A stretch of 64,000 bases of DNA from Escherichia coli (GTDB taxonomy: Bacteria; Pseudomonadota; Gammaproteobacteria; Enterobacterales; Enterobacteriaceae), in the NCBI RefSeq assembly GCF_002854065.1, contig NZ_CP024147.1; one strand, given 5' to 3'. Shown piece by piece: positions 4,334 to 23,590 of the stretch (position 1 is the first letter of the stretch; every line of letters begins with the position of its first letter). Under the pieces are notes generated by a model that saw only the letters and a list, made by a program, of their open reading frames with translations, was not told the origin of the DNA and made no database searches. Both the position numbers and the translations under genes were made by a program.

Positions 4334-5334
4334 AAACAGAACGTATTCTCGGTGCTCTTTATGGGCAGGCGTTAGGGGATGCGATGGGGATGCCCTCCGA
4401 GCTTTGGCCACGCAGCCGCGTTAAAGCACACTTTGGCTGGATTGACCGTTTTCTGCCTGGACCAAAGGAGAATAACGCGGCCTGTTATTTTAACCGCGCC
4501 GAATTCACCGACGATACCTCGATGGCGCTGTGTCTGGCGGATGCGTTGCTGGAACGTAAAGGCAAGATCGATCCGGATCTGATTGGGCGTAATATCCTCG
4601 ACTGGGCGCTGCGTTTCGACGCCTTCAACAAAAACGTGCTAGGTCCGACCTCGAAGATTGCGCTTAACGCCATTCGCGACGGTAAACCCGTTGCTGAACT
4701 GGAAAACAACGGCGTAACCAACGGCGCAGCGATGCGCGTCTCGCCATTAGGTTGTTTGCTTCCGGCGCGCGATGTTGATTCTTTTATTGATGATGTGGCG
4801 CTGGCGTCGAGCCCGACCCATAAATCCGATCTGGCAGTTGCAGGTGCGGTAGTCATCGCATGGGCGATTTCTCGTGCTATTGACGGAGAAAGCTGGTCAG
4901 CGATTGTTGATTCACTGCCTTCAATTGCGCGACATGCCCAGCAAAAACGCACCACCACGTTCAGCGCCTCACTGGCGGCGCGGCTGGAGATTGCGCTGAA
5001 AATTGTGCGCAATGCCGACGGCACCGAATCCGCCAGCGAACAGCTTTACCAGGTCGTTGGCGCAGGTACCAGCACTATTGAGTCCGTTCCGTGCGCCATT
5101 GCGCTGGTTGAACTGGCACAAACCGACCCGAACCGTTGCGCCGTCCTCTGCGCTAACCTTGGCGGCGATACAGACACCATCGGTGCTATGGCGACGGCAA
5201 TCTGCGGCGCGTTGCATGGCATTAACGCTATCGATCCTGCGTTAAAGGCGGAGCTGGATGCGGTAAATCAGCTTGATTTCAACCGCTATGCCACAGCGCT
5301 GGCGAAATATCGTCAACAACGGGAGGCGGTATGA
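4330..5334 (+). CDS. yegU: ADP-ribosylglycohydrolase family protein
   Basis: 334-aa ORF with ADP-ribosylglycohydrolase-like features (LGDAMGMP... and DTDTIGAMA motifs); overlaps yegT stop by 4 nt. Confidence 0.8.
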   Translation: MKTERILGALYGQALGDAMGMPSELWPRSRVKAHFGWIDRFLPGPKENNAACYFNRAEFTDDTSMALCLADALLERKGKIDPDLIGRNILDWALRFDAFNKNVLGPTSKIALNAIRDGKPVAELENNGVTNGAAMRVSPLGCLLPARDVDSFIDDVALASSPTHKSDLAVAGAVVIAWAISRAIDGESWSAIVDSLPSIARHAQQKRTTTFSASLAARLEIALKIVRNADGTESASEQLYQVVGAGTSTIESVPCAIALVELAQTDPNRCAVLCANLGGDTDTIGAMATAICGALHGINAIDPALKAELDAVNQLDFNRYATALAKYRQQREAV

Positions 5335-6296
5335 GCGGCGCTCGATTACACACGCTGCTGCCTGAATTAACCACGCGTCAGTCGGTGATGGTCGTCGGCG
5401 CGGCGGTCATTGACGTGATCGCCGACGCTTATGCCCTCCCCTGGCGTGGGTGCGATATCGAACTGAAACAGCAGAGCGTTAACGTTGGCGGCTGCGCACT
5501 GAATATTGCCGTGGCGTTAAAGCGCCTCGGCATCGAAGCGGGTAATGCCTTGCCGCTCGGTCAGGGGGTATGGGCGGAGATTATTCGCAACCGGATGGCG
5601 AAAGAGGGGTTAATCAGCCTGATCGATAACGCCGAAGGCGATAACGGCTGGTGTCTGGCGCTGGTTGAGCCGGATGGCGAACGTACTTTTATGTCATTCA
5701 GCGGTGTGGAAAATCAGTGGAATCGCCAGTGGCTGGCGCGATTAACCGTTGCGCCTGGCAGCCTGCTCTATTTTTCCGGTTATCAACTGGCCTCGCCCTG
5801 CGGCGAATTGTTAGTGGAATGGCTGGAAGAGCTGCAAGACGTGACGCCGTTTATCGATTTTGGCCCACGTATTGGCGATATCCCGGATGCATTACTGGCG
5901 CGGATCATGGCCTGTCGCCCTTTAGTGTCGCTCAATCGTCAAGAGGCTGAGATTGCCGCCGAACGTTTTGCTTTATCCGCAGAGATAACAACACTTGGCA
6001 AGCAATGGCAGGAGAAATTTGCCGCGCCGTTGATCGTTCGTCTCGATAAAGAGGGTGCATGGTATTTCAGCAACGATGCTTCTGGCTGCATTCCGGCATT
6101 TCCAACGCAAGTTGTCGACACCATTGGGGCGGGCGACAGTCATGCAGGTGGCGTACTTGCCGGGCTGGCCTCTGGTCTGCCACTGGCGGATGCCGTATTA
6201 CTGGGCAATGCAGTGGCGTCGTGGGTTGTCGGGCATCGGGGCGGTGATTGTGCGCCAACGCGCGAGGAACTACTCCTCGCACACAAAAACGTATAG
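5331..6296 (+). CDS. yegV: PfkB-family carbohydrate/nucleoside kinase
   Basis: 321-aa ORF with ribokinase-family C-terminal motif DTIGAGDSHAGG; overlaps yegU stop by 4 nt. Confidence 0.8.
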   Translation: MSGARLHTLLPELTTRQSVMVVGAAVIDVIADAYALPWRGCDIELKQQSVNVGGCALNIAVALKRLGIEAGNALPLGQGVWAEIIRNRMAKEGLISLIDNAEGDNGWCLALVEPDGERTFMSFSGVENQWNRQWLARLTVAPGSLLYFSGYQLASPCGELLVEWLEELQDVTPFIDFGPRIGDIPDALLARIMACRPLVSLNRQEAEIAAERFALSAEITTLGKQWQEKFAAPLIVRLDKEGAWYFSNDASGCIPAFPTQVVDTIGAGDSHAGGVLAGLASGLPLADAVLLGNAVASWVVGHRGGDCAPTREELLLAHKNV

Positions 6297-7016
6297 ATCG
6301 CTGCGACAGTGGCTAATGCTGTACTCAATAGGCCGTTGCTGTTGGTCAAGCGCCACTTGCTTGATCACCAGCACCGGTATTTTGCTATCTAACTGAATAT
6401 GTGACTGAAACTCGGCATCCGGCATCCGGGCGCTAACGCGGGAACGCGTACGTTGTGGGTAAATGTGCTGGCTGCGGAAATAGTCATAAAGTGAAATCCC
6501 GATGGCATCAACATCATGAATTAAATGCGCCGGAACCCACGATTCCTCAATCGATACCGCTTCTTCATCGACATAGCGAATACGCTTAAGCAAAAAGACA
6601 TCACTTCCTGCTTCGACCGCCAGCTGCTGCGCGACTTCTTCGGGACATTTCACGACACGCTTGTTAACCCATAGCGTATCGGGCTTTTTCCCGCGCAATA
6701 CCACCTGCTGAGAAAAACCTCGCGCTTCTTTCAACGAGTATTCGAAGATGTTGTTGATCTGCGTGCCGTAACCGCGCGAACGCGTCACCACGCCCTCTTC
6801 TTCCAGCGCCTGCATCGCCTTGCGCACCGTAATGCGCGAAACGCCGGTTAACTGACTTAAATCACGCTCACCGGGCAAAATATTGCCATGCTCCAGCACC
6901 CCGCTGCGCACGGCATTTTTTACCGTTTCGGCAAACTTAATATAAAGCGGCGTGTTATCCGCCGCTAAAATACGTTCGTTCAGTTGGGCAATCAGCTGGG
7001 TATGCGCTTCTTCCAT
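6270..7016 (-). CDS. yegW: GntR/HutC-family transcriptional regulator
   Basis: 248-aa ORF with N-terminal GntR helix-turn-helix (LPGERDLSQLTGVSRITVRKAMQALEEEGVV) and UTRA-like C-terminal domain. Confidence 0.85.
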   Translation of the reverse strand: MEEAHTQLIAQLNERILAADNTPLYIKFAETVKNAVRSGVLEHGNILPGERDLSQLTGVSRITVRKAMQALEEEGVVTRSRGYGTQINNIFEYSLKEARGFSQQVVLRGKKPDTLWVNKRVVKCPEEVAQQLAVEAGSDVFLLKRIRYVDEEAVSIEESWVPAHLIHDVDAIGISLYDYFRSQHIYPQRTRSRVSARMPDAEFQSHIQLDSKIPVLVIKQVALDQQQRPIEYSISHCRSDLYVFVCEE

Positions 7017-7067
7017 TTGTCTTTTTCCTGCCAGGAAGTCTGGTGGGAGTATATCACTGCTTCTTAT

Positions 7068-7895
7068 TTAAGGCGTTTCTTTAATCCCATCAACGAATCC
7101 CTGCAACTCCTCCACCGTGCCATTAAACACATTAAAATCCACCGGACCATTGATGCCATCTACCTGTCCACGGTCGGAATGCTGCCAGAAGCGCCAGGCC
7201 ATTCCGTCATTGTCCGGACGACGTTGATAATAGTGAGCCACCCACCACGGATATTCATTAAAATAGCCCGCCAGATTCGTGTGATAAAAAACGGCTCCTG
7301 AGTAAATAATCGGCTTTTTTCCCGTGCGTTTTTCTACCATTTTTAGCCACTGACTTACCCGCTTGCGTAATTCTTTTGCCGATAATTTTCCCCGTTCTTC
7401 TACGTCCAGCACGGCAGGGAAATCGCCTTGTGAGAAATCTACCGTTTGCAGAAATAATCGCGCCTGAACCGGTGCTGCTACCGACGGGGAAAAATAATGA
7501 TACGCCCCGCGCAGCAGGCCATTTTCGCGGCTTAGTTGCCAGTTACGCGAAAAATACGGGTCCACCAGCTTTTCGCCTTCCGTCGCCTTAATAAAAGCAA
7601 ACTGTAAGCGGATACCGTTGTCGCGCATTTTTGCCACCCGCTGCCAGTCGATCCGCTCCTGCCAGCGAGAAACATCTATTCCGTGAATGGTGTAACTGGC
7701 AGGAATGCGAATAGCGAAAGATTTAACCGGGCGATAACCGTAGAAATGGATGTAGTCTGTAATCTGAACTGCTGTCGAATAGAAAAAATTCACCGTCTGA
7801 CGCGGATAAATTGCAACGATGGAAATTAGCCCAAGAGCGCATAATAGAGAGGTGAGTTTTTTTCGACTGGTAATTCTTAGCTGCATTGGTTTCAT
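7068..7895 (-). CDS. yegX: Glycoside hydrolase family 25 (lysozyme-like) protein with signal peptide
   Basis: 275-aa ORF; N-terminal hydrophobic segment and GH25-like region (IHGIDVSRWQ...); position matches yegX. Confidence 0.75.
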   Translation of the reverse strand: MKPMQLRITSRKKLTSLLCALGLISIVAIYPRQTVNFFYSTAVQITDYIHFYGYRPVKSFAIRIPASYTIHGIDVSRWQERIDWQRVAKMRDNGIRLQFAFIKATEGEKLVDPYFSRNWQLSRENGLLRGAYHYFSPSVAAPVQARLFLQTVDFSQGDFPAVLDVEERGKLSAKELRKRVSQWLKMVEKRTGKKPIIYSGAVFYHTNLAGYFNEYPWWVAHYYQRRPDNDGMAWRFWQHSDRGQVDGINGPVDFNVFNGTVEELQGFVDGIKETP

Positions 7896-7950
7896 CCCTG
7901 AATGTCAGTGCCAAAGGCTGACAATAACCAAAGCAGCTATAGTACGGTGC

Positions 7951-8751
7951 TCACCACCAGGCGTGGAAGTGGTGAACCGGACCAATACCGTGACCAACTT
8001 CCAGCGTGTCGGCCTGGGCTAATGCTGATGAAAGCCAGCTTTTTGCCTCCTGTACGGTGTCAGCCCAGTTTGTATGGCGCGGGCGTAGTGCAGCCAACGC
8101 CGCAGAGAGCGTACAACCAGTGCCGTGGGTGTTTTTGGTCATAATGCGCGGTGCGGTAAACCGTTGTTCACCCTCGCGGGTAAACAGCCAGTCCGGGCTT
8201 TGCTCATCATCCAGATGACCACCTTTCATTAGCACTGCGCCACAGCCCATCGCCAACAGCGATCGCCCTTGTTCCAGCATTTCCTGTTCGGTGCGCGCGT
8301 GTGGCGCGTCGAGCAAGGCGGCAGCTTCGGGCAAGTTTGGCGTTATTAATGAAACCTGTGGCAATAATCGACTGCGCAGCGTAGCAACCGCCGAAGGTGA
8401 AAGCAGCGGGTCGCCGCTTTTTGCCAGCATAACGGTGTCGAGTACCACGTTTTGGATCTGATAACGTTGCAACCGTTCTGCCACCGCTTCAACAATATCG
8501 GTTTCCGCCAACATACCGATTTTAGTGGTGTCGATTCGCACATCGCTGAACACCGAATCGAGCTGGGCGGCGACAAAATCAGGCTCAATGCGATACACTG
8601 ACTGTACGCCACGGGTATTTTGCGCCACCAGTGCAGTAATAACTGAGCAACCATAAGCGCCAAGTGCCGAGAAGGTTTTAAGATCGGCCTGAATCCCCGC
8701 ACCACCACTCGGATCAGTACCGGCAATCGTCAGAGCGTTAATTCGTTTCAT
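7951..8751 (-). CDS. thiD: Hydroxymethylpyrimidine / phosphomethylpyrimidine kinase
   Basis: 266-aa [37 protein letters not shown]... recognised as ThiD. Confidence 0.9.
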
Positions 8752-9536
8752 GCCTGCACCTCCTGCGTCAATTGCCAGAGCGCATCAAGGAAATGTGGAA
8801 CAAAACTGCCTGGCCCCTCGCTTCTGGCGACTGCGCGTTCTCCGGCTTGTTTCATCCAGTGACAGGCAGATGCGACATTTTCCAGCGTATCGCCTGGTAA
8901 CGCACAGCAGGCAGCGACAACCGCCGATAATGCACAGCCAGTTCCTACCACTTTGGTCATTAACGGATCGCCACCGTGAATACCAATGATACGATGTCCA
9001 TCGGTAACATAATCCATCTCGCCAGTGACCACGACGATTGCGCCAGTTTCCCGTGCCAGTGTTTGTGCAGCGGGTATCGCGTTAGCTGCGGCGTCAGTGG
9101 TATCCACTCCCCGTCCACCATTAGCAATGCCAGCTAATGCCATGATTTCCGAAGCATTACCACGTATCGCTGCCGGTTTAAAAGATAAAAGTTCATGACA
9201 AAAATGGCGGCGATAATCGAGCGCACCAACCGCTACTGGATCAAGCGTCCAGGGTGTTTGAGAGCTTTTTGCTTGCTCAACGGCAGCACGCATCGCCTGA
9301 GCGCGTGGCTGCGTCAGTGTGCCAACGTTAATCAACAAGGCACTGGCGATAGCCGCAAACTGACTGGCCTCTTCGGTTTCGATAACCATCGCTGGCGATG
9401 CACCGAGCGCCAGCAAGGTATTGGCGGTAAAGGTTTGCACCACATCATTGGTCATGCAGTGCACAAGAGGGGAATGTTGGTGAAAAAGGTGTAACGCGTG
9501 CGCAGATTGCGCTGAACCCAGCAGGTCGACTTGCAT
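8748..9536 (-). CDS. thiM: Hydroxyethylthiazole kinase
   Basis: 262-aa [37 protein letters not shown]... recognised as ThiM; 4-nt overlap with thiD. Confidence 0.9.
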
Positions 9537-9544
9537 AGTTTGCT

Positions 9545-9665
9545 CCTGCCATAACGTGAAGAAGCAATGACCTGGTGGTCCGTGACTTCCCTACGCTGGC
9601 ATTATCCAGATCAGGTGATACGGGTATTTCTCAGCCTTCACGCAGAAGGGCACCCCGAGTCGTTT
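9545..9665 (-). promoter_or_regulatory. TPP riboswitch (THI element) in the thiM leader
   Basis: Minus-strand sequence ...ggggtgcccttctgcgtgaaggctgagaaatacccgtatcacctgatctggataatgccagcgtagggaag... immediately upstream of the thiM ATG matches the thiM TPP aptamer as recalled. Confidence 0.85.
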
Positions 9666-9758
9666 GGTTGCGATGATAAATCGCAGAGGAGGATGGTAAT
9701 GTCCAGCGCACGCGTTGTAAACGAGGAAAAACGGCAGTTTTACAATCGCGTTAATAAA

Positions 9759-10031
9759 TTATTTGATATATGAATCCAGCACCTTCAGAACGACATCCAG
9801 ATCTTCTTCACGTTTTAGCTCATCCCCCTGGTGAACGATGTGTTCCGTCAGATGACCTTTAATCACTTCCCGCATCAGACCGTTTACCGCGCCACGGATA
9901 GCAGCAATCTGTTGTAAAACTGCAGCGCATTCGTGCGGCTCGTCGAGCATTTTCTTGAGCGCCACGACCTGGCCCTGAATCTTACTGGCACGCGCTTTCA
10001 GTTTCTGTTTATCACGGATTGTATGAGACAT
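9759..10031 (-). CDS. rcnR: Ni/Co-responsive transcriptional repressor (CsoR/RcnR family)
   Basis: 90-aa [52 protein letters not shown]... recognised as RcnR. Confidence 0.9.
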
Positions 10032-10077
10032 GGCAACACCTGGTTAACAAGAATATGAAAAATCATAGCACTATTAA

Positions 10078-10112
10078 TCTACTGGGGGGTAGTATCAGGT
10101 ACTGGGGGGGAG
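10078..10112. promoter_or_regulatory. Two RcnR operator sites (TACT-G6/7-N-AGTA) in rcnR-rcnA divergent promoter
   Basis: tactggggggtagta at 10078-10092 and tactgggggggagta at 10098-10112; G-tract inverted repeats of the type described for RcnR binding. Confidence 0.75.
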
Positions 10113-10151
10113 TAGAATCAGATTGCCGAATTAATACTAAGAATTATTATC

Positions 10152-10976
10152 ATGACCGAATTTACAACTCTTCTTCAGCAAGGAAACGCCTGGTTCTTCA
10201 TCCCCAGCGCCATCTTACTTGGTGCGCTTCATGGCCTGGAACCAGGGCACTCAAAAACGATGATGGCGGCGTTTATCATCGCCATCAAAGGCACCATTAA
10301 ACAAGCGGTGATGCTCGGACTGGCAGCAACTATTTCGCATACCGCAGTGGTCTGGTTAATTGCCTTTGGCGGGATGGTGATCAGCAAGCGCTTTACTGCT
10401 CAATCAGCAGAACCGTGGCTCCAGCTGATTTCCGCAGTGATCATTATTAGCACCGCGTTCTGGATGTTCTGGCGTACCTGGCGCGGCGAACGCAACTGGC
10501 TGGAGAATATGCACGGGCATGATTATGAGCATCATCATCACGATCACGAACATCACCACGACCATGGACATCATCACCATCACGAACATGGCGAGTATCA
10601 GGATGCCCATGCACGAGCCCATGCCAATGACATTAAACGACGCTTTGATGGTAGAGAGGTCACCAACTGGCAAATTTTGTTATTTGGCTTAACCGGTGGC
10701 CTTATCCCCTGCCCGGCAGCAATTACCGTGCTGTTGATATGCATTCAGTTGAAAGCCCTGACACTGGGCGCAACACTGGTCGTCAGTTTCAGCATTGGCC
10801 TGGCGTTAACGCCTGTCACCGTAGGCGTTGGCGCAGCAATCAGCGTTCAGCAGGTCGCAAAACGCTGGAGCGGATTTAACACTCTCGCTAAACGCGCCCC
10901 CTATTTTTCCAGTCTGTTGATTGGCTTAGTCGGTGTGTATATGGGCGTACATGGCTTCATGGGCATAATGCGATAA
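10152..10976 (+). CDS. rcnA: Nickel/cobalt efflux membrane protein with His-rich loop
   Basis: 274-aa ORF with HGHDYEHHHHDHEHHHDHGHHHHHEHGEY histidine-rich segment and NiCoT-like transmembrane regions. Confidence 0.9.
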   Translation: MTEFTTLLQQGNAWFFIPSAILLGALHGLEPGHSKTMMAAFIIAIKGTIKQAVMLGLAATISHTAVVWLIAFGGMVISKRFTAQSAEPWLQLISAVIIISTAFWMFWRTWRGERNWLENMHGHDYEHHHHDHEHHHDHGHHHHHEHGEYQDAHARAHANDIKRRFDGREVTNWQILLFGLTGGLIPCPAAITVLLICIQLKALTLGATLVVSFSIGLALTPVTVGVGAAISVQQVAKRWSGFNTLAKRAPYFSSLLIGLVGVYMGVHGFMGIMR

Positions 10977-11194
10977 CTCAATCCTTTAGGCTTGCATGTT
11001 ATCTTCAGCCCAGGATGATTCTTAAATCAGCTATTTCCGCTGACTCTCTGCTCGCTAAGGATGCTTTTAGGGCATCCTTTCATTTACACTTTTTACGAAA
11101 TCATGGGATCACTAACAAAATATCGCTTGTCAGTTATATTGTATGGCAGGAAAGATATGCGACTGATATTACAGATCCCCAAAGTGGAGAGTTT

Positions 11195-11533
11195 ATGACC
11201 ATTAAAAATAAGATGTTGCTGGGTGCGCTTTTGCTGGTTACCAGTGCCGCCTGGGCCGCACCAGCCACCGCGGGTTCGACCAATACCTCGGGAATTTCTA
11301 AGTATGAGTTAAGCAGTTTCATTGCTGACTTTAAGCATTTCAAACCAGGCGATACCGTCCCAGAGATGTACCGCACCGATGAGTACAACATTAAGCAGTG
11401 GCAGTTACGTAACCTGCCCGCGCCTGATGCCGGGACGCACTGGACCTATATGGGTGGCGCGTACGTGTTGATCAGCGACACCGACGGTAAAATCATTAAA
11501 GCCTACGACGGTGAGATTTTTTATCATCGCTAA
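11195..11533 (+). CDS. rcnB: Periplasmic Ni/Co homeostasis protein
   Basis: Translation MTIKNKMLLGALLLVTSAAWAAPA... with signal peptide; 112 aa after trimming the 172-aa ORF. Confidence 0.85.
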   Translation: MTIKNKMLLGALLLVTSAAWAAPATAGSTNTSGISKYELSSFIADFKHFKPGDTVPEMYRTDEYNIKQWQLRNLPAPDAGTHWTYMGGAYVLISDTDGKIIKAYDGEIFYHR

Positions 11534-11558
11534 AAAAAGCCCCCTCATCATGAGGGGG
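11532..11558 (-). terminator. Stem-loop with U-run on the minus strand (candidate rho-independent terminator)
   Basis: gccccctcatcatgagggggc hairpin; on the minus strand it is followed by a T7 run. Confidence 0.5.
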
Positions 11559-11614
11559 AAATGCAGACACCTTGTTATTTTTTATTATTAGCCACTTGCT
11601 CGTCTTGCTTGTTA

Positions 11615-11761
11615 TTAGTCGTATTTCACGTTGATTAATGCGGTTGCCTCCAGTGCGCCAGATTTAATTTTATTTGTATCGTAGACGTAGTAACTGGCTG
11701 TTATCGGAATTGAAACCGTTGTATCTGTAAGTTTTGACTTTGCCGCAATTTCTTTTAAATT
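11615..11761 (-). pseudogene. yehA: 3' remnant of a fimbrial-subunit-like gene (yehA position) truncated by IS1
   Basis: Minus-strand frame reads ...NLKEIAAKSKLTDTTVSIPITASYYVYDTNKIKSGALEATALINVKYD* and runs open into the IS1 end at 11764; gene identity inferred from position next to rcnB. Confidence 0.5.
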
Positions 11762-11778
11762 TGGGTAATGACTCCAAC

Positions 11779-12282
11779 TTATTGATAGTGTTTTATGTTC
11801 AGATAATGCCCGATGACTTTGTCATGCAGCTCCACCGATTTTGAGAACGACAGCGACTTCCGTCCCAGCCGTGCCAGGTGCTGCCTCAGATTCAGGTTAT
11901 GCCGCTCAATTCGCTGCGTATATCGCTTGCTGATTACGTGCAGCTTTCCCTTCAGGCGGGATTCATACAGCGGCCAGCCATCCGTCATCCATATCACCAC
12001 GTCAAAGGGTGACAGCAGGCTCATAAGACGCCCCAGCGTCGCCATAGTGCGTTCACCGAATACGTGCGCAACAACCGTCTTCCGGAGCCTGTCATACGCG
12101 TAAAACAGCCAGCGCTGGCGCGATTTAGCCCCGACGTATCCCCACTGTTCGTCCATTTCCGCGCAGACGATGACGTCACTGCCCGGCTGTATGCGCGAGG
12201 TTACCGACTGCGGCCTGAGTTTTTTAAATGGCGGAAAATCGTGTTGAGGCCAACGCCCATAATGCGGGCGGTTGCCCGGCAT
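11779..12282 (-). CDS. insB: IS1 InsB reading frame (transposase made as InsAB' by -1 frameshift)
   Basis: 167-aa ORF ...[54 protein letters not shown]... recognised as InsB; overlaps insA 3' end. Confidence 0.9.
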
Positions 12283-12476
12283 CCAACGCCATTCATGGCC
12301 ATATCAATGATTTTCTGGTGCGTACCGGGTTGAGAAGCGGTGTAAGTGAACTGCAGTTGCCATGTTTTACGGCAGTGAGAGCAGAGATAGCGCTGATGTC
12401 CGGCAGTGCTTTTGCCGTTACGCACCACCCCGTCAGTAGCTGAACAGGAGGGACAGCTGATAGAAACAGAAGCCAC
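12201..12476 (-). CDS. insA: IS1 InsA protein
   Basis: 91-aa [46 protein letters not shown]... recognised as InsA. Confidence 0.95.
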
Positions 12477-12600
12477 TGGAGCACCTCAAAAACACCATCA
12501 TACACTAAATCAGTAAGTTGGCAGCATCACCGACTTTGTAGAGTTTCGGACGAAGGTCCGCAGAATATTCGCAGTATTAAATAAGTGTTCATTAATGCGG

Positions 12601-12642
12601 CAAAAACTAATACACCGCATCAATGTAACATCTCTGCGGTGT
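12601..12642 (-). terminator. Candidate rho-independent terminator downstream of mrp
   Basis: Inverted repeat acaccgca...tgcggtgt; on the minus strand followed by a T-rich run (rc of caaaaactaat). Confidence 0.55.
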
Positions 12643-12672
12643 ATGAAGAATAACCAGAATGGTTAATAGGCG

Positions 12673-13782
12673 TTAGACCGCGCGGAAGGAAATCTCGCCT
12701 GGAATGACTTCACCCTGCCAGTAGAGCTGAGCTGCAACGCGGTCAGCCAGCTGGCGGTAGATAGCGGTAAATTCGCTCTCCGGACGGCTGATAACCGTTG
12801 GCGTGCCTTTATCGAGATCCTCACGTAAGGAGATGTGTAACGGCATCTGCCCCAGCAGCTGTGTGTGGTATTTTTCAGCCAGTTTCTCTGCACCACCGGT
12901 ACCGAAAATCGGTTCATGGTGACCACAGTTACTGCAAATATGCACACTCATGTTCTCGACAATACCAAGCACCGGAACCTCGACTTTCTCGAACATCACA
13001 ATGCCTTTTTTCGCATCGATCAACGCGATGTCCTGCGGGGTGGTGACCACGACTGCACCAGTTACTGGAATGTTTTGCGCCAGCGTCAATTGAATGTCAC
13101 CGGTGCCTGGCGGCATATCAAGCACCAGATAGTCGAGATCCGGCCACAAGGTTTCCTGCAACATCTGCATTAACGCCTTGCTCGCCATCGGTCCACGCCA
13201 CACCATCGCATTGTCGTCAGTGACCAGATAACCAATTGAATTGGTTGCCAGGCCATGAGACATAATCGGTGCCATATGGGTACCGTCCGGCGAAGTTGGA
13301 CGCTGATTTTCTGCGCCCAGCATGGTGGGAATTGATGGGCCGTAGATATCGGCGTCCAGAATGCCGACTTTCGCCCCTTCCGCCGCCAGTGCCAGCGCCA
13401 GGTTTACCGCCGTGGAGGATTTACCCACGCCGCCTTTACCGGAACTGACCGCAATGATGTTCTTCACACCATTAATACCCGGCTGATTCTTCACGCGTTT
13501 TAAGGTGGCGATATTGTGCGACAGTTTCCAGTCGATAGCTTTCGCCCCGGTGATACGCAGCAGTTCGGCGCTACATTGCTCTTTTAACTCTTCAAACGCG
13601 CTATGCCAGACGAATGGCATAACCAGTTCCACATGCAACGTGTCGTCCATCCAGGCGACATGGTGCAACGCTTTCAGCGTGGTGAGGTTATGCTTCAGGG
13701 TTGGGTGCTGAAAATTGGCCAGTGTCCCGGCGACCATTGCGCGCAAGGCTTCTGGTGATTTGGCCTGGGATTGTTCGTTCAT
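12673..13782 (-). CDS. mrp: Fe-S cluster carrier ATPase (Mrp/ApbC/NBP35 family)
   Basis: Translation MNEQSQAKSPEALRAMVAGTLANFQHPTLKHNL... with Walker A GKGGVGKSS; 369 aa after start trimming. Confidence 0.9.
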   Translation of the reverse strand: MNEQSQAKSPEALRAMVAGTLANFQHPTLKHNLTTLKALHHVAWMDDTLHVELVMPFVWHSAFEELKEQCSAELLRITGAKAIDWKLSHNIATLKRVKNQPGINGVKNIIAVSSGKGGVGKSSTAVNLALALAAEGAKVGILDADIYGPSIPTMLGAENQRPTSPDGTHMAPIMSHGLATNSIGYLVTDDNAMVWRGPMASKALMQMLQETLWPDLDYLVLDMPPGTGDIQLTLAQNIPVTGAVVVTTPQDIALIDAKKGIVMFEKVEVPVLGIVENMSVHICSNCGHHEPIFGTGGAEKLAEKYHTQLLGQMPLHISLREDLDKGTPTVISRPESEFTAIYRQLADRVAAQLYWQGEVIPGEISFRAV

Positions 13783-13913
13783 CCCGACTCCTTTTTTGTA
13801 TAGATAAACCATCAGCTGATAGTTTACCTGAAGAATATAGAGAAGTACTTACTTAACATTTTCCCATTTGGTACTATCTAACCCCTTTTCACTATTAAGA
13901 AGTAATGCCTACT

Positions 13914-15947
13914 ATGACTCAAGTCGCGAAGAAAATTCTGGTGACGTGCGCACTGCCGTACGCTAACGGCTCAATCCACCTCGGCCATATGCTGGAGCAC
14001 ATCCAGGCTGATGTCTGGGTCCGTTACCAGCGAATGCGCGGCCACGAGGTCAACTTCATCTGCGCCGACGATGCCCACGGTACACCGATCATGCTGAAAG
14101 CTCAGCAGCTTGGTATCACCCCGGAGCAGATGATTGGCGAAATGAGTCAGGAGCATCAGACTGATTTCGCAGGCTTTAACATCAGCTATGACAACTATCA
14201 CTCGACGCACAGCGAAGAGAACCGCCAGTTGTCAGAACTTATCTACTCTCGCCTGAAAGAGAACGGTTTTATTAAAAACCGCACCATCTCTCAGCTGTAC
14301 GATCCGGAAAAAGGCATGTTCCTGCCGGACCGTTTTGTGAAAGGCACCTGCCCGAAATGTAAATCCCCGGATCAATACGGCGATAACTGCGAAGTCTGCG
14401 GCGCGACCTACAGCCCGACTGAATTGATCGAGCCGAAATCGGTGGTTTCTGGCGCTACGCCGGTAATGCGTGATTCTGAACACTTCTTCTTTGATCTGCC
14501 CTCTTTCAGCGAAATGTTGCAGGCATGGACCCGCAGCGGTGCGTTGCAGGAGCAGGTGGCAAATAAAATGCAGGAGTGGTTTGAATCCGGCCTGCAACAG
14601 TGGGATATCTCCCGCGACGCGCCATACTTTGGTTTTGAAATTCCGAACGCGCCGGGCAAATATTTCTACGTCTGGCTGGACGCACCGATTGGCTACATGG
14701 GTTCTTTCAAGAATCTGTGCGACAAGCGCGGCGACAGCGTAAGCTTCGATGAATACTGGAAGAAAGACTCCACCGCCGAGCTGTACCACTTCATCGGTAA
14801 AGATATTGTTTACTTCCACAGCCTGTTCTGGCCTGCCATGCTGGAAGGCAGCAACTTCCGCAAGCCGACCAACCTGTTTGTTCATGGCTATGTGACGGTG
14901 AACGGCGCAAAGATGTCCAAGTCTCGCGGCACCTTTATTAAAGCCAGCACCTGGCTGAATCATTTTGACGCTGACAGCCTGCGTTACTACTACACTGCGA
15001 AACTCTCTTCGCGCATTGATGATATCGATCTCAACCTGGAGGATTTCGTTCAGCGTGTGAATGCCGATATCGTGAACAAAGTGGTTAACCTGGCCTCTCG
15101 TAATGCGGGCTTTATCAACAAGCGTTTTGACGGCGTGCTGGCAAGCGAACTGGCTGACCCGCAGTTGTACAAAACCTTCACTGATGCCGCTGAAGTGATT
15201 GGTGAAGCGTGGGAAAGCCGCGAATTTGGTAAAGCAGTGCGCGAAATCATGGCGCTGGCTGATCTGGCTAACCGCTATGTCGACGAGCAGGCTCCGTGGG
15301 TGGTGGCAAAACAGGAAGGCCGCGATGCCGACCTGCAGGCAATTTGCTCAATGGGCATAAACCTGTTCCGCGTGCTGATGACTTACCTGAAGCCGGTACT
15401 GCCGAAACTGACCGAGCGCGCAGAAGCATTCCTCAATACAGAACTGACCTGGGATGGTATCCAGCAACCGCTGCTGGGCCACAAAGTGAATCCGTTCAAA
15501 GCGCTGTATAACCGCATCGATATGAAGCAGGTTGAAGCACTGGTGGAAGCATCTAAAGAAGAAGTGAAAGCAGCTGCCGCGCCAGTTACTGGCCCACTGG
15601 CAGATGATCCGATTCAGGAAACCATCACCTTTGACGACTTCGCAAAAGTTGACCTGCGCGTGGCGCTGATCGAAAACGCAGAGTTTGTTGAAGGTTCTGA
15701 CAAACTGCTGCGCCTGACACTGGATCTCGGCGGTGAAAAACGCAATGTCTTCTCCGGTATTCGTTCTGCCTACCCGGATCCGCAGGCACTGATCGGGCGT
15801 CACACCATTATGGTGGCCAACCTGGCGCCACGTAAAATGCGCTTTGGTATCTCCGAAGGCATGGTAATGGCTGCTGGTCCTGGCGGGAAAGATATCTTCC
15901 TGTTAAGCCCGGATGCTGGTGCTAAACCAGGCCATCAGGTGAAATAA
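13914..15947 (+). CDS. metG: Methionyl-tRNA synthetase
   Basis: Translation [38 protein letters not shown]... with HIGH and KMSKS motifs; 677 aa after start trimming. Confidence 0.95.
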
Positions 15948-15956
15948 TCCCCCTTC

Positions 15957-15986
15957 AAGGCGCTGCATCGACAGCGCCTTTTCTTT
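15957..15986 (+). terminator. Rho-independent terminator downstream of metG
   Basis: aaggcgctgcatcgacagcgcctt hairpin followed by ttctttat. Confidence 0.65.
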
Positions 15987-16034
15987 ATAAATTCCTAAAG
16001 TTGTTTTCTTGCGATTTTGGGTAATGACTCCAAC

Positions 16035-16538
16035 TTATTGATAGTGTTTTATGTTCAGATAATGCCCGATGACTTTGTCATGCAGCTCCACCGATTTTGA
16101 GAACGACAGCGACTTCCGTCCCAGCCGTGCCAGGTGCTGCCTCAGATTCAGGTTATGCCGCTCAATTCGCTGCGTATATCGCTTGCTGATTACGTGCAGC
16201 TTTCCCTTCAGGCGGGATTCATACAGCGGCCAGCCATCCGTCATCCATATCACCACGTCAAAGGGTGACAGCAGGCTCATAAGACGCCCCAGCGTCGCCA
16301 TAGTGCGTTCACCGAATACGTGCGCAACAACCGTCTTCCGGAGACTGTCATACGCGTAAAACAGCCAGCGCTGGCGCGATTTAGCCCCGACGTATCCCCA
16401 CTGTTCGTCCATTTCCGCGCAGACGATGACGTCACTGCCCGGCTGTATGCGCGAGGTTACCGACTGCGGCCTGAGTTTTTTAAATGGCGGAAAATCGTGT
16501 TGAGGCCAACGCCCATAATGCGGGCGGTTGCCCGGCAT
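16035..16538 (-). CDS. insB: IS1 InsB reading frame (copy 2)
   Basis: 167-aa ORF identical to copy 1 except one residue (YDSLRK vs YDRLRK). Confidence 0.9.
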
Positions 16539-16732
16539 CCAACGCCATTCATGGCCATATCAATGATTTTCTGGTGCGTACCGGGTTGAGAAGCGGTGTA
16601 AGTGAACTGCAGTTGCCATGTTTTACGGCAGTGAGAGCAGAGATAGCGCTGATGTCCGGCAGTGCTTTTGCCGTTACGCACCACCCCGTCAGTAGCTGAA
16701 CAGGAGGGACAGCTGATAGAAACAGAAGCCAC
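16457..16732 (-). CDS. insA: IS1 InsA protein (copy 2)
   Basis: 91-aa ORF identical in translation to copy 1 InsA. Confidence 0.95.
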
Positions 16733-16787
16733 TGGAGCACCTCAAAAACACCATCATACACTAAATCAGTAAGTTGGCAGCATCACC

Positions 16788-17282
16788 CTGCTGACGTTAT
16801 CCCTTCCGGCATCTGCCTGTTCTCCTTTTGCCGTTGAACGCATGGCGGCGCTTTTGCAACAAACAGACGACCCCGTGAGTCTGGTTTCTGGCTTTGTCAG
16901 CTTTGTAGAGGGGCAATTGACACTGGAACCACGGGTGATGATGACAAAAACCCGTGCCTGGGCGCTGGACGCGGAAACTGCGCCTGTGGCACCGCTACCT
17001 TCTGCCAGCGTTTTGCCTGTGCCGTCTACCGCTCATCAGTTGCTGATGCGCTGCCAGGCGTTACTTATTCAACTGCTCCATAACGGCTGGCGCTATCAGG
17101 AACAGAGCGCTATTAGTCAGGCAGAGTTGCTGGCGAATGACCTCACCGCGGTGGGTTTTTATCGGCTGGCACATGTGTTGGCACAATTTCGTAATACAGA
17201 AAGCGAGGCACGGGTAGAAGCAATGAATAACGGTGTTTTGCTTTGCGAACAATTATTCCCCATGCTTCAGCAACAAGGATGA
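16788..17282 (+). pseudogene. yehQ: 3' fragment of the gene upstream of yehR (yehQ position), truncated at its 5' side by IS1
   Basis: Plus-strand frame is open from the first base after the IS1 end (16788) through ORF 16842..17282; no start context or promoter; identity inferred from position. Confidence 0.45.
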
Positions 17283-17406
17283 AATAGTGCTTTTTACTAA
17301 GAGTTCTACTCCAGTTCCGGACTGCTCACACCACGGTATTAGGCATATCCTATATAGCCCCTGGTGAGAGTCACCAGTTTCTTGATTAAATAAAATGGAG
17401 TTTTAC

Positions 17407-17868
17407 ATGAAGGCTTTCAATAAGCTGTTTTCCCTCGTTGTTGCATCTGTTCTGGTTTTCTCTCTTGCTGGCTGCGGTGACAAAGAAGAATCGAAGAAAT
17501 TCAGCGCCAATCTGAACGGCACTGAAATTGCCATTACCTATGTCTACAAAGGTGACAAAGTGCTTAAGCAATCTTCTGAAACCAAAATTCAATTTGCCTC
17601 CATTGGTGCAACCACCAAAGAAGATGCTGCCAAGACACTTGAGCCGTTAAGCGCCAAATACAAAAACATCGCGGGTGTTGAAGAAAAATTAACCTATACC
17701 GATACCTACGCGCAGGAAAACGTGACTATCGATATGGAAAAAGTGGATTTTAAAGCCCTGCAGGGTATTTCAGGAATCAACGTTTCTGCTGAAGATGCCA
17801 AAAAAGGTATCACTATGGCGCAAATGGAACTGGTGATGAAAGCCGCTGGTTTTAAAGAAGTGAAATAA
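17407..17868 (+). CDS. yehR: Lipoprotein of unknown function (DUF1307 family)
   Basis: Translation MKAFNKLFSLVVASVLVFSLAGCGDKEE... with lipobox LAGC; 153 aa after start trimming. Confidence 0.85.
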   Translation: MKAFNKLFSLVVASVLVFSLAGCGDKEESKKFSANLNGTEIAITYVYKGDKVLKQSSETKIQFASIGATTKEDAAKTLEPLSAKYKNIAGVEEKLTYTDTYAQENVTIDMEKVDFKALQGISGINVSAEDAKKGITMAQMELVMKAAGFKEVK

Positions 17869-17908
17869 TCTGTCGGCGGCCATGTTTCGCATGGCCGCCA
17901 TACCCGTC

Positions 17909-18379
17909 TTAGCTTTTCTTCACATGCTGGCGCGCTGCCAGTCCACGCAGAAAATAACGTAAAAATTGATCGCCGCATTCGCGGAAGTTTTTATGATCCG
18001 GTGCGCGCATCATCGCTGTAATTTCCGGCATCGAAACGCGGAACTGCTGTTCGGTGAGGATAGCCAGAATGTCATCGGTTTTCAGCGAAAACGCGATGCG
18101 TAATTTTTTCAGCACGATGTTGTTATTAATGCGACGTTCCGGCTCCAGTGCCGGAGCAGACTCATCCTTGCCGCGTTTTTCATAAATCAGGCCATTGAGG
18201 AATGACGACAAAACAATGTCCGGACAACGCTGAAAACCCTCTTCGTCTTCTTTACGTAGCCAGACGGCGATCTGTTCCGCGGTGGCTTCGACATTACCCA
18301 GCGCCAGAATACGCACCAGGTCATTATTATTGGCTTTCAAAATGTAGCGCACGCTACGCAGAATATCGTTACTTAGCAT
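17909..18379 (-). CDS. yehS: DUF1456-family protein
   Basis: Translation MLSNDILRSVRYILKANNNDLVRILALGNVEATAEQIAVWLRKEDEEG...; 156 aa after start trimming. Confidence 0.8.
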   Translation of the reverse strand: MLSNDILRSVRYILKANNNDLVRILALGNVEATAEQIAVWLRKEDEEGFQRCPDIVLSSFLNGLIYEKRGKDESAPALEPERRINNNIVLKKLRIAFSLKTDDILAILTEQQFRVSMPEITAMMRAPDHKNFRECGDQFLRYFLRGLAARQHVKKS

Positions 18380-19145: not shown

Positions 19146-20827
19146 GCCTCGTCCCTCCATGGTAGTCGTAACGTTATTCGGGTGTAACTATCAGGCTCAC
19201 AGGCGACGCTTGTTCCATAGTCATCGCCAAACCGTTCACGTAAACGCTTATCCACCAGATTCATCCCCAGCCCACTGGCATTGGTTACCGGTTGATACAA
19301 ACCGGCATTGTCTTCGATCTCCAGCATCAAATGTTGCCCCTCACGTCGGGCGCTGATTGCCACTCGCCCTGTATCCAGCAGTTGTGATGTCCCATGTTTA
19401 ATGGCGTTTTCCACTATCGGTTGCAGGGTAAACGCGGGCAATTGCTGCTGGGATAATTCTTGCGGAATAGCAATGTTGACCTGCAACCGCGACTGGAAGC
19501 GCGCCTTTTCAATTTGCAGATAAGCGTTCACATGTTCAATTTCGTCGGCGAGAGTAACAAACTCCGAAGGCCGCTTTAAGTTTTTGCGGAAAAAAGTGGA
19601 AAGATACTGCACCAGCTGGCTGGCCTGTTCGCTGTCGCGGCGGATCACCGCTTTAATGGTGTTAAGCGCATTAAACAAAAAATGAGGATTCACCTGGGCG
19701 TGAAGCAGTTTGATTTCTGACTGGGTGAGCATCGCTTTTTGCCGCTCATATTGCCCGGCAAGAATCTGCGCCGAAAGCAGTTGCGCAATCCCCTCGCCCA
19801 GCGTGCGGTTTATTGAACTGAATAAACGGTTTTTGGCTTCATACAATTTGATGGTGCCCATCACCCGCTGATTTTCACCACGCAACGGAATTACCAGCGT
19901 CGACCCCAGTTTGCATTGCGGATGCAAAGAGCAACGATAAGGTACTTCGTTGCCATCAGCGTAGACCACTTCACCGGTTTCAATCGCTTTTAAGGTGTAA
20001 GTCGAAGAAATCGGTTTGCCGGGTAAATGGTGGTCGTCACCAATTCCAGTAAAGGCCAGCAATTTCTCTCGATCGGTAATCGCGACTGCACCAATATCCA
20101 GCTCCTGATACAGCACCTGTGCCACTTTCATGCTGTTCACTTCGTTAAACCCCTGGCGCAAAATGCCTTCCGTCGAGGCTGCCACTTTCAGCGCAGTGGC
20201 AGAAAAAGCCGAAGTGTATTTTTCAAACATCGCGCGTTTATCGAGCAATATACGCATAAACAGCGCCGCGCCGACGGTATTGGTGACCATCATTGGCGCA
20301 GCAATATTACTCACCAGACGCACCGCATCTTCATAAGGTCGGGCGATCGCCAGGATGATCAACATTTGCACCATTTCAGCGACGAACGTGACGGCACCGG
20401 CGGTAATGGGGTTAAAGACTTTATCAGTGCGCCCGCGACGGATCAGGATGCTGTGTACCAGGCCGCCGAGCAATCCTTCAACGATGGTCGAGATCATGCA
20501 ACTTAGCGCGGTCATGCCCCCCATCGAATATCGATGTAACCCGCCGGTCAGGCCAACCAGCCCACCGACGACCGGACCGCCGAGTAAGCCGCCCATTACC
20601 GCGCCTATCGCACGGGTATTGGCAATAGAATCGTCAATGTGCAACCCAAACCAGGTGCCCATGATGCAGAAGATGGAAAAGACGATGTAGCAGAGAAATT
20701 TATGCGGCAGACGAACCGTGACCTGCATTAACGGTATGAATAATGGCGTTTTACTCATTAACCACGCAATGACTAAAAAAACGCACATCTGCTGAAGCAG
20801 CAGCAACACCAGATTAAAATCGTACAT
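19142..20827 (-). CDS. btsS: LytS-family sensor histidine kinase (pyruvate-sensing BtsS/YehU)
   Basis: Translation [30 protein letters not shown]... with 5TM-LytS N-terminus, GAF and His-kinase domains; 561 aa; 4-nt overlap with btsR. Confidence 0.9.
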
Positions 20828-21048
20828 ACCCGCAAACCACACTTCCCTTTAAAACGCGTAACATACATTGCCTGCGTTTAACTTTCTTTGAACTCTTGCA
20901 GAAAAATGAGAATTCGTGAGTACGATCACTCAAAATCGCCTGGCAAAAATAAAATCACCCTATAAATGCACAAAAAACGGGCAAAACTACCTGGTTCGCA
21001 AAACTGCGTCTAAAGTTAAACCGGGACCTCGCGAGCAAGGGTGAGACG

Positions 21049-21780
21049 ATGGCGCTTTACACAATTGGTGAAGTGGCGTTGCTTTGTGATATTAACCCTG
21101 TCACGTTACGCGCGTGGCAGAGGCGTTACGGATTGCTGAAACCGCAACGGACAGACGGCGGTCATCGGCTGTTCAACGATGCCGATATTGACCGGATCCG
21201 CGAGATCAAACGCTGGATCGACAACGGCGTGCAGGTCAGCAAAGTTAAAATGCTGCTCAGTAATGAAAATGTTGATGTGCAGAACGGCTGGCGCGATCAG
21301 CAAGAAACATTACTGACCTACCTGCAAAGCGGCAATCTGCATAGCCTGCGAACGTGGATCAAAGAGCGCGGTCAGGATTACCCCGCCCAGACACTCACCA
21401 CACATCTGTTTATTCCTCTGCGCCGACGGCTTCAGTGCCAACAACCGACTCTCCAGGCGCTGCTGGCGATCCTCGACGGCGTACTGATCAACTACATCGC
21501 CATTTGTCTGGCTTCGGCACGTAAAAAACAGGGTAAAGATGCGCTGGTGGTTGGCTGGAATATTCAGGATACCACCCGTCTGTGGCTGGAGGGCTGGATT
21601 GCCAGTCAACAAGGATGGCGCATTGATGTCCTCGCCCACTCGCTCAATCAACTACGCCCTGAACTGTTCGAAGGCCGTACATTGCTGGTGTGGTGCGGTG
21701 AAAATCGAACCTCCGCCCAACAGCAGCAACTCACCAGTTGGCAGGAACAAGTCCATGATATTTTCCCACTCGGCATTTAA
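21049..21780 (+). CDS. mlrA: MerR-family transcriptional regulator of csgD
   Basis: 243-aa ORF MALYTIGEVALLCDINPVTLRAWQRRYGLLKPQRTDGGHRLFNDADIDRIREIKRWIDNG... with MerR HTH. Confidence 0.9.
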   Translation: MALYTIGEVALLCDINPVTLRAWQRRYGLLKPQRTDGGHRLFNDADIDRIREIKRWIDNGVQVSKVKMLLSNENVDVQNGWRDQQETLLTYLQSGNLHSLRTWIKERGQDYPAQTLTTHLFIPLRRRLQCQQPTLQALLAILDGVLINYIAICLASARKKQGKDALVVGWNIQDTTRLWLEGWIASQQGWRIDVLAHSLNQLRPELFEGRTLLVWCGENRTSAQQQQLTSWQEQVHDIFPLGI

Positions 21781-21839
21781 TGATTCGTTAACAAATGCGC
21801 TTTACTGTACAATCCTTTCGTTAACATAAGGAGTGCATT

Positions 21840-21947
21840 ATGCGCATAGCTAAAATTGGGGTCATCGCCCTGTTCCTGTTTATGGCGTTAGGCGGAATTG
21901 GTGGCGTCATGCTCGCAGGTTATACCTTTATTTTGCGTGCTGGCTAA
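21840..21947 (+). CDS. yohO: Small membrane protein (35 aa)
   Basis: ATG at 21840 preceded by aaggag; translation [35 protein letters not shown] recognised as the small protein YohO; 3' end overlaps the convergent yehW stop. Confidence 0.75.
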
Positions 21948-22659
21948 GCGCCTGCACCAGCCTTTCAAACAGGCGGTCTGCGATGATCGCCGCCAGTGCC
22001 ACCAGTAACGCTCCCTGGATCACATACGCGGTATTAAATCCGCTAAGCCCGATGATGATGGGCGTACCCAGCGTGCTGGCCCCTACCGTTGAGGCGATCG
22101 TCGCCGTACCAATGTTGATAATCACCGAAGTTCGCACGCCCGCCAGAATCACCGGAGCCGCCAGCGGTAGCTCGACCTTACGCAGTCGCTGACCACGACT
22201 CATTCCCATACCCTTCGCAACTTCTGTCACGCTGGCATCAATCGCTCCCAGCCCGGCAAGTGTCGCCTGCAGGACGGGCAGCACGCCGTATAGGATCAAG
22301 GCGATAATCGCTGGTTGCAGACCAAAGCCGATCACCGGAACAGCAATCGCCAGCACCGCAACGGGCGGAAAAGTCTGCCCAACGGCGGCAATAGTTTCCA
22401 CCAGTGGGCGAAATTCCGCGCCCCACGGGCGAGTGACTGCAATTCCGGCACCAGTACCAATGATCACCGCAAACAGACTCGAAATTCCCACCAGCCAGAA
22501 ATGAGCCAGTGCCAGAGCTGCAAAACTTTCTTGCTGATAAACGGGTCGTGGCAGTTGTGGGAACAAGGCAGCAAACAGCGGCTGGCTGTAAGGCAGCCAG
22601 AAAATCAGTGCCGCAAACAAAGCAATGAGCCAGAACAGCGGATCGCGCAACATCTTCAT
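21928..22659 (-). CDS. yehW: ABC transporter permease (glycine betaine/osmoprotectant uptake system)
   Basis: 243-aa polytopic ORF with ABC permease EAA-like loop (...[24 protein letters not shown]...). Confidence 0.85.
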
Positions 22660-22663
22660 ACGC

Positions 22664-23590
22664 TTACGCCTCCACCAGCAGATCCTGAAAATGCAGCGTG
22701 CCGCAAGGCTGGCCCTGCGTGTTCACCACCGGCAGCACCTCGCATCCCCGCGCGACAAACAGAGAGAGCGCATCGCGTAGCGTCATCTCTTCTGCCAGTG
22801 CCTCACCTTCTGCTCGTTCTTCGCGACGCACGTAATCCGCCACACTACGTAACGAAAGCAGGCGCACACCCAGTTCACTACGTCCAAAAAAATGGCGGAC
22901 AAAATCATTCGCCGGACGAGTCAGCATCGTCAGCGGATTGCCCTGCTGCACCACTTCACCGTGATCCATCAATACCAGATGTTCTGCCAGCCGTAGCGCC
23001 TCATCAATATCATGAGTGACCAGCACAATAGTGCGCCCCAGCAAACGGTGAATGCGCGTCATCTCTTGTTGCAACGCGCCGCGCGTTACCGGGTCCAGTG
23101 CGCCAAAAGGTTCATCCATCAGTAAGACTTGCGGATCGGCAGCCAGTGCACGGGCCACTCCCACACGTTGCTGCTGACCACCGGAAAGCTGATGCGGATA
23201 ACGCTCACGCAAATTTGACTCCAGCCCCAGTAGCGCCATTAATTCGTCGATACGATCGTCAATCCGTGCCCGCGACCATTTTTGTAATTGCGGCACGGTA
23301 GCGATGTTTTGCGCCACGCTCCAGTGGGGGAACAGGCCAATAGATTGAATGGCATAGCCCATCCGGCGGCGCAACTCCAGTACTGGCAGCGAGCGAATTT
23401 CTTCTCCGGCAAAGCGGATCTCTCCGCTGTCATGCTCCACCAGGCGGTTAATCATTTTCAGGGTGGTGGATTTACCGGAGCCAGATGTGCCAATCAGCAC
23501 CGAAAAACTCCCTTCCTGAAAATTGAGATTGAGATCGTTAACGGCTTTTTGTGCGCCAAACAGTTTGCTGACATGGCTAAATTCAATCAT
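22664..23590 (-). CDS. yehX: ABC transporter ATP-binding protein
   Basis: 308-aa ORF with Walker [10 protein letters not shown], signature LSGGQQQRV and Walker [12 protein letters not shown]. Confidence 0.9.

Follow-up and report, generated by a model that had tools for sequence, protein, structure and literature searches.

Convergent Overlap of the Small-Protein Gene yohO with yehW in Escherichia coli: Transcript Ends, Double-Stranded RNA, and Putative Regulatory Coupling

Introduction

Convergent neighbours in Escherichia coli frequently run into each other's transcripts—276 of 370 convergent operons (about 75%) overlap, by a mean of 286 nt (Conway et al. 2014, PMC4161252). The same study reports 18 small sense transcripts that are completely overlapped by an opposite-strand operon, and a row of the p19 study (PMC7373196) that is attributed to its data set reads 'Overlap cds annotated yohO'. 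More recently, ExcludonFinder (2025) placed yohO–yehW among 165 convergent excludons in its Table 1, with the core set defined as those called in at least 50% of 58 MG1655 transcriptomes (PMC12288877). Double-stranded RNA (dsRNA) has been captured at such loci with p19, and its density at convergent 3' overlaps averaged 37.9-fold below that at divergent 5' overlaps (PMC7373196).

The locus described here resembles the known convergent excludons (PMC4161252, PMC12288877) in its opposite-strand neighbours, a transcript overlap of a few hundred nucleotides, and RNase III products. Unlike in other convergent excludons, the coding sequences of yohO and yehW themselves overlap, which makes the transcript overlap obligatory rather than a result of leaky termination. 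The functional hallmark of an excludon is antagonistic expression, which for yohO–yehW is putative. The pair is also similar to the 'Full' class of the p19 study (for example, tpx between tyrR and ycjG), in that more than 50% of the yohO coding sequence lies within dsRNA reads. It differs from a non-contiguous operon, since yohO lies at the very 3' end of the operon it opposes and not in its middle.

A further parallel concerns transcript termination. In 2018, Dar and Sorek reportedly described a general model in which Rho-dependent 3' ends are trimmed back to a hairpin without a U-tract. The yohO transcript shares two aspects of this model: a GC-rich hairpin of 7 bp, not followed by a U-run, stands 5 nt before its 3' end, and a bicyclomycin-sensitive region follows about 180 nt downstream in C-rich, G-poor sequence. 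It departs from the cases behind the model in that the trimming step is putative for yohO.

All coordinates refer to the window, the whole 64,000-nt stretch of E. coli DNA that was analysed, unless another map is named. The yohO gene of the window is the same gene as that of the YohO/UPF0387 small membrane protein of K-12 (b4542, NF010225), with no difference between the copies. Public annotation or published tables already cover yohO itself, its overlap with yehW, the mapped mRNA 3' end, the Rho region, the dsRNA, and the classification as an 'excludon', and the idea of coupling through the overlap has been catalogued in the E. coli 'excludome' (PMC12288877). Here we add a species survey, a frame analysis, a conserved yohO promoter, and an operator-like palindrome. 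As a discovery the overlap matters little, and it has modest value as a clean example; a tail-to-tail overlap of coding sequences is a convenient natural case for the cost or regulatory use of obligatory 3'–3' dsRNA.

The Gene Pair

21049–21780, plus strand: mlrA coding sequence, MerR-family regulator (Pfam MerR_1, MlrA_helical, MlrA_C; RefSeq)
21828–21833, plus strand: Shine–Dalgarno sequence AAGGAG, 6 nt 5' of the yohO ATG
21840–21947, plus strand: yohO coding sequence, 35 codons with an ATG start (six-frame ORF list; RefSeq-annotated)
21928–22659, minus strand: yehW coding sequence, 243 aa, BPD_transp_1 permease (Pfam; RefSeq-annotated)
21928–21947: tail-to-tail overlap of the yohO and yehW coding sequences, 20 nt

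yehW is the last gene of osmF-yehYXW and encodes a glycine betaine ABC transporter permease, while mlrA is the upstream neighbour of yohO, separated from it by a gap of 59 nt. Within the overlap, codons 30–35 and the stop codon of yohO lie opposite the final 6 sense codons and the stop codon of yehW. The yehW stop codon (21928–21930) falls within the Phe30–Ile31 codons of yohO, 17 nt inside the gene; the yohO stop codon falls within Leu–Ser codons of yehW (Leu/Ile–Ser/Thr across species). An earlier sequence-only reading had described a 35-codon yohO ORF that ends at 21947 and has a good Shine–Dalgarno sequence, as the ORF list and the sequence bear out; its minus-strand yehW ORF ending at 21928 agrees with the ORF list and with RefSeq for strain 100416 and K-12.

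A 1.7-kb query from the locus is 100% identical to E. coli strain 100416, where RefSeq gives the order mlrA, yohO, yehW, yehX and the yohO/yehW pair has the same 20-nt overlap. The K-12 MG1655 RefSeq record (yohO, b4542, 2215657–2215764, plus strand; yehW, b2128, 2215745–2216476, minus strand) likewise has a 20-nt overlap. The window is collinear with K-12 at the locus, and a window position equals the K-12 position minus 2193817.

The reading that yohO is a spurious ORF, or the overlap an annotation artefact of a wrong stop or frame, can draw on the very short length of the ORF, the lack of a Pfam match for YohO, and an exhaustive phmmer search of 1.84 billion representative proteins that returned only 17 YohO representatives, all of them enterobacterial-type or frameshifted read fragments or artefacts. 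We reject this reading as next to impossible on the strength of an equivalog match, codon diversity, a conserved start, mass spectrometry, and Ribo-seq. The YohO peptide, whose 35 residues are identical to the K-12 protein, matches the NCBIfam equivalog NF010225 'protein YohO' over residues 1–35 of 35 with 80.1 bits (E = 8.8e-23), against a curated cut-off of 57 bits. For the species survey, one genome per species was scanned with YehW, giving 80 loci and a 79-sequence alignment. Nucleotide diversity at codon positions 1/2/3 in the yohO-only part is 0.229/0.083/0.495 (28 codons, 79 enterobacterial sequences), a pattern typical of a coding frame and the signature of purifying selection on yohO. 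In 78 species the yohO ATG and Shine–Dalgarno sequence (AAGGAG or CAGGAG) are conserved; top-down mass spectrometry has picked up the protein (PMC12529367), and published Ribo-seq supports the frame. Both stop codons are the first in-frame stops, and a 3' overlap is independent of start-codon choice.

YohO is a hydrophobic small protein with an invariant MAxxGIGGVML core; it is membrane-bound, with one predicted hydrophobic helix. Judging from the phmmer search, the family is narrow. No function for YohO was found in the accessible literature, and yohO is reported to be down by about 3 log2 units in anaerobic Shigella.

Transcript Ends and Termination

21972–21991, plus strand: hairpin GGCGGUC-UGCGAU-GAUCGCC, 7 bp, GC-rich, in the yohO 3' UTR and the yehW coding sequence
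21996 (K-12 2215813), plus strand: yohO mRNA 3' end (Term-seq and TRS)
22104–22259, plus strand: C-rich, G-poor stretch around the Rho peak, C/G 1.6–2.3

The yohO 3' end has been mapped by two independent data sets. Term-seq has three listings of K-12 2215813, one tab per growth condition, as 'primary yohO, antisense yehW' (PMC7815308, supp. 1), and TRS gives a yohO terminus range of 2215809–2215818, which makes the 3' UTR about 50 nt long (PMC10687069). This end is 49 nt past the yohO stop codon, 69 nt inside the yehW coding sequence, and 5 nt after the hairpin at 21972–21991. The hairpin has no U-tract after it; the TRS table also gives this structure, with -13.5 kcal/mol and U counts of 1 and 1 (PMC10687069). 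In a covariation test across species, 79% of cells in its helix are paired and 3 pairs are double-changed; its outer pairs fail in about half of the species, and the helix lies in conserved coding sequence.

Further downstream, a Rho termination region has been reported on the plus strand, antisense to yehW, with a peak at K-12 2215995, or window 22178 (PMC7815308, supp. 2). The call comes from DirectRNA-seq with and without bicyclomycin (score 5.6, p = 9e-16), and the coverage upstream/downstream was 124/44 without the drug and 76/152 with it (PMC7815308). The plus-strand C/G ratio is 1.3–2.3 over 21948–22259. The yohO transcript thus shows what is expected of Rho-dependent termination: read-through raised by bicyclomycin, C-rich and G-poor RNA, and an end without a U-tract.

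Intrinsic termination fits the locus poorly. A scan of both strands found no convincing intrinsic terminator after either stop codon, and the folds of both 3' regions were not better than those of shuffled sequences (z = -1.5 and -1.2). Nor was a bidirectional intrinsic terminator recognized between yohO and yehW, which have no intergenic space. With neither intergenic space nor an intrinsic terminator, each mRNA must therefore enter the other gene. Since the yehW stop codon lies inside yohO, a translatable yehW mRNA cannot end before reaching yohO.

For the minus strand, neither 3'-end data set lists a yehW 3' end (PMC7815308, PMC10687069). A row attributed to the Conway data set, whose column meanings are inferred, would put the end of the osmF-yehW operon at about window 21821 (PMC7373196), and the stretch antisense to yohO is mildly C-rich on the minus strand (C/G 1.35–1.64). 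Rho ends plus-strand read-through further inside antisense yehW, and we propose that the stable yohO 3' end at 21996 would be the product of 3'–5' trimming back to the hairpin at 21972–21991. The yehW transcripts may in turn be ended by Rho in the untranslated antisense-yohO stretch, at about 21820–21850; for this minus-strand end point we rely on the dsRNA cluster and on our interpretation of the table row.

Double-Stranded RNA Across the Overlap

21852–22142, both strands: dsRNA region, p19-captured 21-nt RNase III products (PMC7373196, Table S1e and duplex list)

The dsRNA region corresponds to p19 cluster 173, labelled 'yehW yohO' and of type 'Full' in the stationary-phase data set; it spans U00096.2 2213690–2213981 and reached 368 (S data set), 57 (R1), and 239 (R2) RPM (PMC7373196). 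Its coordinates were anchored by duplex matches, with UAAGCGCCUGCACCAGCCUUU placed at window 21945 (the yohO stop codon) and AUGAUCGCCGCCAGUGCCACC at 21983. Complementary 21-nt duplexes from the p19-expressing strain lie at 21945–21965, 21949–21969, and 21983–22003 (PMC7373196). Hence, minus-strand RNA extends into yohO as far as codon 5 or beyond, and plus-strand RNA continues for at least 195 nt past the yohO stop codon. The cluster is a weak one: the top coding clusters have 4,478–17,960 RPM, which makes it about 10–50 times weaker (PMC7373196). In the same source, a Conway-attributed record appears to describe a yohO transcription unit of 254 nt that the osmF-yehW operon overlaps along its full length, again with inferred column meanings (PMC7373196).

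According to these published data, both strands are transcribed across about 250–290 bp, and RNase III-type 21-nt dsRNA products exist in vivo. The sequence-only reading had put the transcript overlap at about 20 nt, which holds as the logical minimum set by the coding sequences; as a size it falls well short of the measured span of about 250–290 nt. The locus shares two features with convergent excludons—adjacent opposite-strand genes with overlapping transcripts, and RNase III-processed dsRNA, the latter from published data.

Conservation of the Overlap

The arrangement is ancient and widespread in the species survey: yohO and yehW overlap at 79 of 80 enterobacterial species loci, and yohO is intact at 78 of 80. 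An overlap of 26 nt occurs in 43 species, one of 20 nt in 33, and one of 17 nt in 2; each length is 2 mod 3, which keeps the frame relation identical in every species. The 26-nt and 20-nt groups are separated by a 6-nt indel inside the overlap that changes both proteins together, YohO from 35 to 37 aa and YehW from 243 to 245 aa. yohO is single-copy and strictly syntenic, with a median of 1 place per genome.

Two loci stand apart. At Citrobacter amalonaticus AUH_CA_2023_1 (L008, about 3760–3790), an additional T in a T5 run puts yohO out of frame; comparison with two other genomes of C. amalonaticus makes a long-read assembly error more probable than a pseudogene. The only locus of the 80 without the overlap is that of Enterobacterales bacterium CwR94 (L081, 3001–5929), where yehW encodes 241 aa and yohO, mlrA, and btsS are all missing. 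A convergent gene of 714 aa lies 58 nt past this yehW; from its translation by eye, it looks like pta.

Four further loci have no mlrA between btsS and yohO, and in each of them yohO still overlaps yehW:

L035: Intestinirhabdus alba, mlrA-less locus
L050: Klebsiella spallanzanii, mlrA-less locus
L058: Enterobacteriaceae MAG, mlrA-less locus
L079: Pseudocitrobacter MAG, mlrA-less locus

At these loci yohO (about 3713–3826) is directly beside btsS (from about 4030–4210). As a separate observation, the mlrA–yohO gap is enlarged to 228–529 nt in Klebsiella oxytoca, K. indica, and K. michiganensis.

Within E. coli, a 201-bp core of the locus is present in 5423 of 5426 complete genomes, with at least 99% identity in 5403 records. 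The 1.7-kb query, unlike the 201-bp core, reaches at least 99% identity in only 77 records. Between the window and K-12 there are 0 differences over 21753–22011 (259 nt), where about 5 would be expected from the divergence of about 1.9% in the surrounding 6.4 kb. The 79/80 conservation and the 259-nt identity could alternatively be due to selection on the arrangement itself. Conservation alone cannot separate a by-product from a function, because overlapped genes are hard to part again.

Frame Relation and Selection Inside the Overlap

In the shared frame relation, a third codon position in either gene lies opposite a second codon position in the other. With the stop codons excluded, diversity inside the overlap at yohO positions 1/2/3 is 0.19/0.20/0.38, over only 14 positions; variation is therefore greatest at the yohO wobble position, which is also the yehW second position. 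Just upstream in the yehW frame (21948–21958), codons outside the overlap have diversities of 0.35–0.73 at all three positions. The C-terminal tails follow the same trend—that of YehW is widely divergent between species, and that of YohO is constantly FILRAG or FIVRGGVG. Selection inside the overlap thus seems to follow yohO and not yehW, as far as 14 positions in an alignment can tell.

The position of the yehW stop codon can be read from YohO. On the plus strand the stop appears as TTA or TCA, the reverse complement, and is made up of bases 2–3 of the Phe30 codon and base 1 of the Ile31 codon. YohO keeps a Phe/Val–Ile pair (xTT or xTC, then A), and therefore yehW stops there. In the mechanism we propose, the weakly constrained C-terminal tail of YehW would read on until a stop is supplied by the conserved YohO Phe–Ile codons, and the coding overlap would be a by-product of how tightly the genes are packed, not a purpose-built switch. 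Synonymous sites of yehW that lie under the yohO 3' UTR are at least as variable as those further upstream (diversity 0.50 over the first 60 nt vs 0.48 over 120 nt).

The yohO Promoter Region

21777–21791: palindrome TTAATG-N3-CGTTAA, 15 bp (TTAATG-N3-CATTAA in most species)
21808–21813, plus strand: yohO -10 element TACAAT (TATAAT in most species and genera)
21837–21865, minus strand: promoter-like site ATGACC-17-CATAAT from a consensus scan, its -10 overlapping the yohO start codon

The gene has a conserved promoter of its own, together with a strong ribosome-binding site. The -10 element is at a fixed distance from the yohO ATG in nearly all species of the 79-sequence alignment, and the four mlrA-less loci keep it. 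A published row gives the start of the yohO transcription unit as 2213660 (U00096.2), or about window 21821, which is about 8 nt past the -10 (PMC7373196); this row is attributed to the Conway data set, and its column meanings are inferred.

Upstream of the -10 lies a palindrome (21777–21791) that includes the mlrA stop codon; its centre lies some 37 nt before the inferred start site of yohO. Nearly all of the 79 sequences retain it, those of the four mlrA-less species among them, so that mlrA coding does not account for its conservation. The palindrome looks like a candidate operator for a regulator of yohO. An exact 10-nt direct repeat, TTCGTTAACA, is also present at 21784–21793 and 21817–21826, its copies 33 nt apart and flanking the -10; GTTAAC, itself palindromic, occurs in each copy, and both copies have a TTAACA core that is conserved across species. 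We had also considered TGTACAAT, at the yohO -10, which presumably resembles an MlrA-box half-site; this was dropped, as most species have CGTATAAT and the conserved feature is the -10 itself.

On the minus strand, an antisense transcription start at 2213668 (U00096.2), about window 21829, lies about 8 nt downstream of the promoter-like site (PMC7373196 row); its source is either Dornenburg or Thomason, the column heading being uncertain. RNA from this start reads into the mlrA 3' end in antisense, away from yohO. Conservation of the minus-strand -10 (CATAAT) is limited to Escherichia and a few other genera.

By-Product or Regulatory Switch

A regulatory coupling of yohO and osmF-yehYXW, as the sequence-only reading suggested, is plausible and remains putative. 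We consider it probable that the locus is a tightly packed tail-to-tail pair with an obligatory, Rho-limited transcript overlap and incidental dsRNA. Any coupling would then amount to a modest lowering of each unit's expression by the other, brought about by dsRNA cleavage or polymerase collision while the two are active together. The main competitor is a dedicated convergent excludon, in which mRNA pairing together with RNase III cleavage or polymerase collision would interlink YohO and osmF-yehYXW, for example under osmotic or stationary-phase stress. Much of what has been described above can be claimed for it: the transcript overlap and the RNase III-type dsRNA products are real, the pair belongs to the core excludome of E. 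coli, 79 of 80 species share the arrangement, and it was a stationary-phase data set that yielded the dsRNA cluster. These points are tempered by the background, since with about 75% of convergent operons overlapping, an overlap predicts little; the dsRNA of convergent pairs is far below that of divergent ones, and cluster 173 is weak even so. yehW synonymous diversity, moreover, is not reduced under the yohO 3' UTR (0.50 vs 0.48). Taken together, we regard a dedicated excludon, stress-responsive or otherwise, as unlikely.

The expected timing of expression bears on the same choice. The upstream neighbour mlrA is reportedly RpoS-dependent, according to work by Brown and colleagues in 2001. For the opposing operon, osmF is a core RpoS-dependent gene (PMC10654073), and minus-strand transcription through yohO should accordingly rise in stationary phase, as a dedicated excludon would have it. 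With osmF and mlrA both dependent on RpoS, both sides are expected to be active together in stationary phase; such co-activity is in line with the dsRNA and leaves room for mutual dampening, but a mutually exclusive switch would not agree with it. A more specific proposal is that YohO may be a small-protein partner or modulator of OsmF-YehYXW, with the overlap and dsRNA/RNase III setting the YohO:transporter ratio under sigma-S. Compatible with such a partnership are the four mlrA-less species, in which yohO remains locked to yehW, and the 6-nt overlap indel, which altered both proteins together; we nevertheless hold it to be quite improbable.

A 35-aa hydrophobic peptide whose coding sequence is almost fully covered by antisense transcription also brings to mind a type I toxin–antitoxin-like module, with a toxic YohO checked by antisense RNA. 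This we find scarcely credible, and reject it: no dedicated antisense sRNA with its own promoter was found at yohO. The only antisense start found in the published tables (about 21829) is upstream of the yohO ATG and reads away, and the antisense RNA over yohO is the 3' end of the transporter operon. An Rfam search of 20800–22800 gave no family at E <= 1, yohO occurs as a single copy in strict synteny, and a yohO ASKA clone induced with IPTG survived a growth-based screen (PMC10299036).

Other Features Near the Locus

Two observations concern the flanking genes. Within the first 13 codons of mlrA there is a terminator-like hairpin with a T-run (21053–21087), and a Term-seq 3' end at K-12 2214904 (window 21087; 'internal', 38 nt into the mlrA ORF) falls right after it, which may reflect premature termination or attenuation of mlrA. 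Inside yehW, at about window 22311, lies a genomic SELEX intragenic (type D) peak (map 2214150, U00096.2); it is placed between yohO and yehX and belongs to a minor-sigma holoenzyme, apparently RpoE as judged from the section heading.
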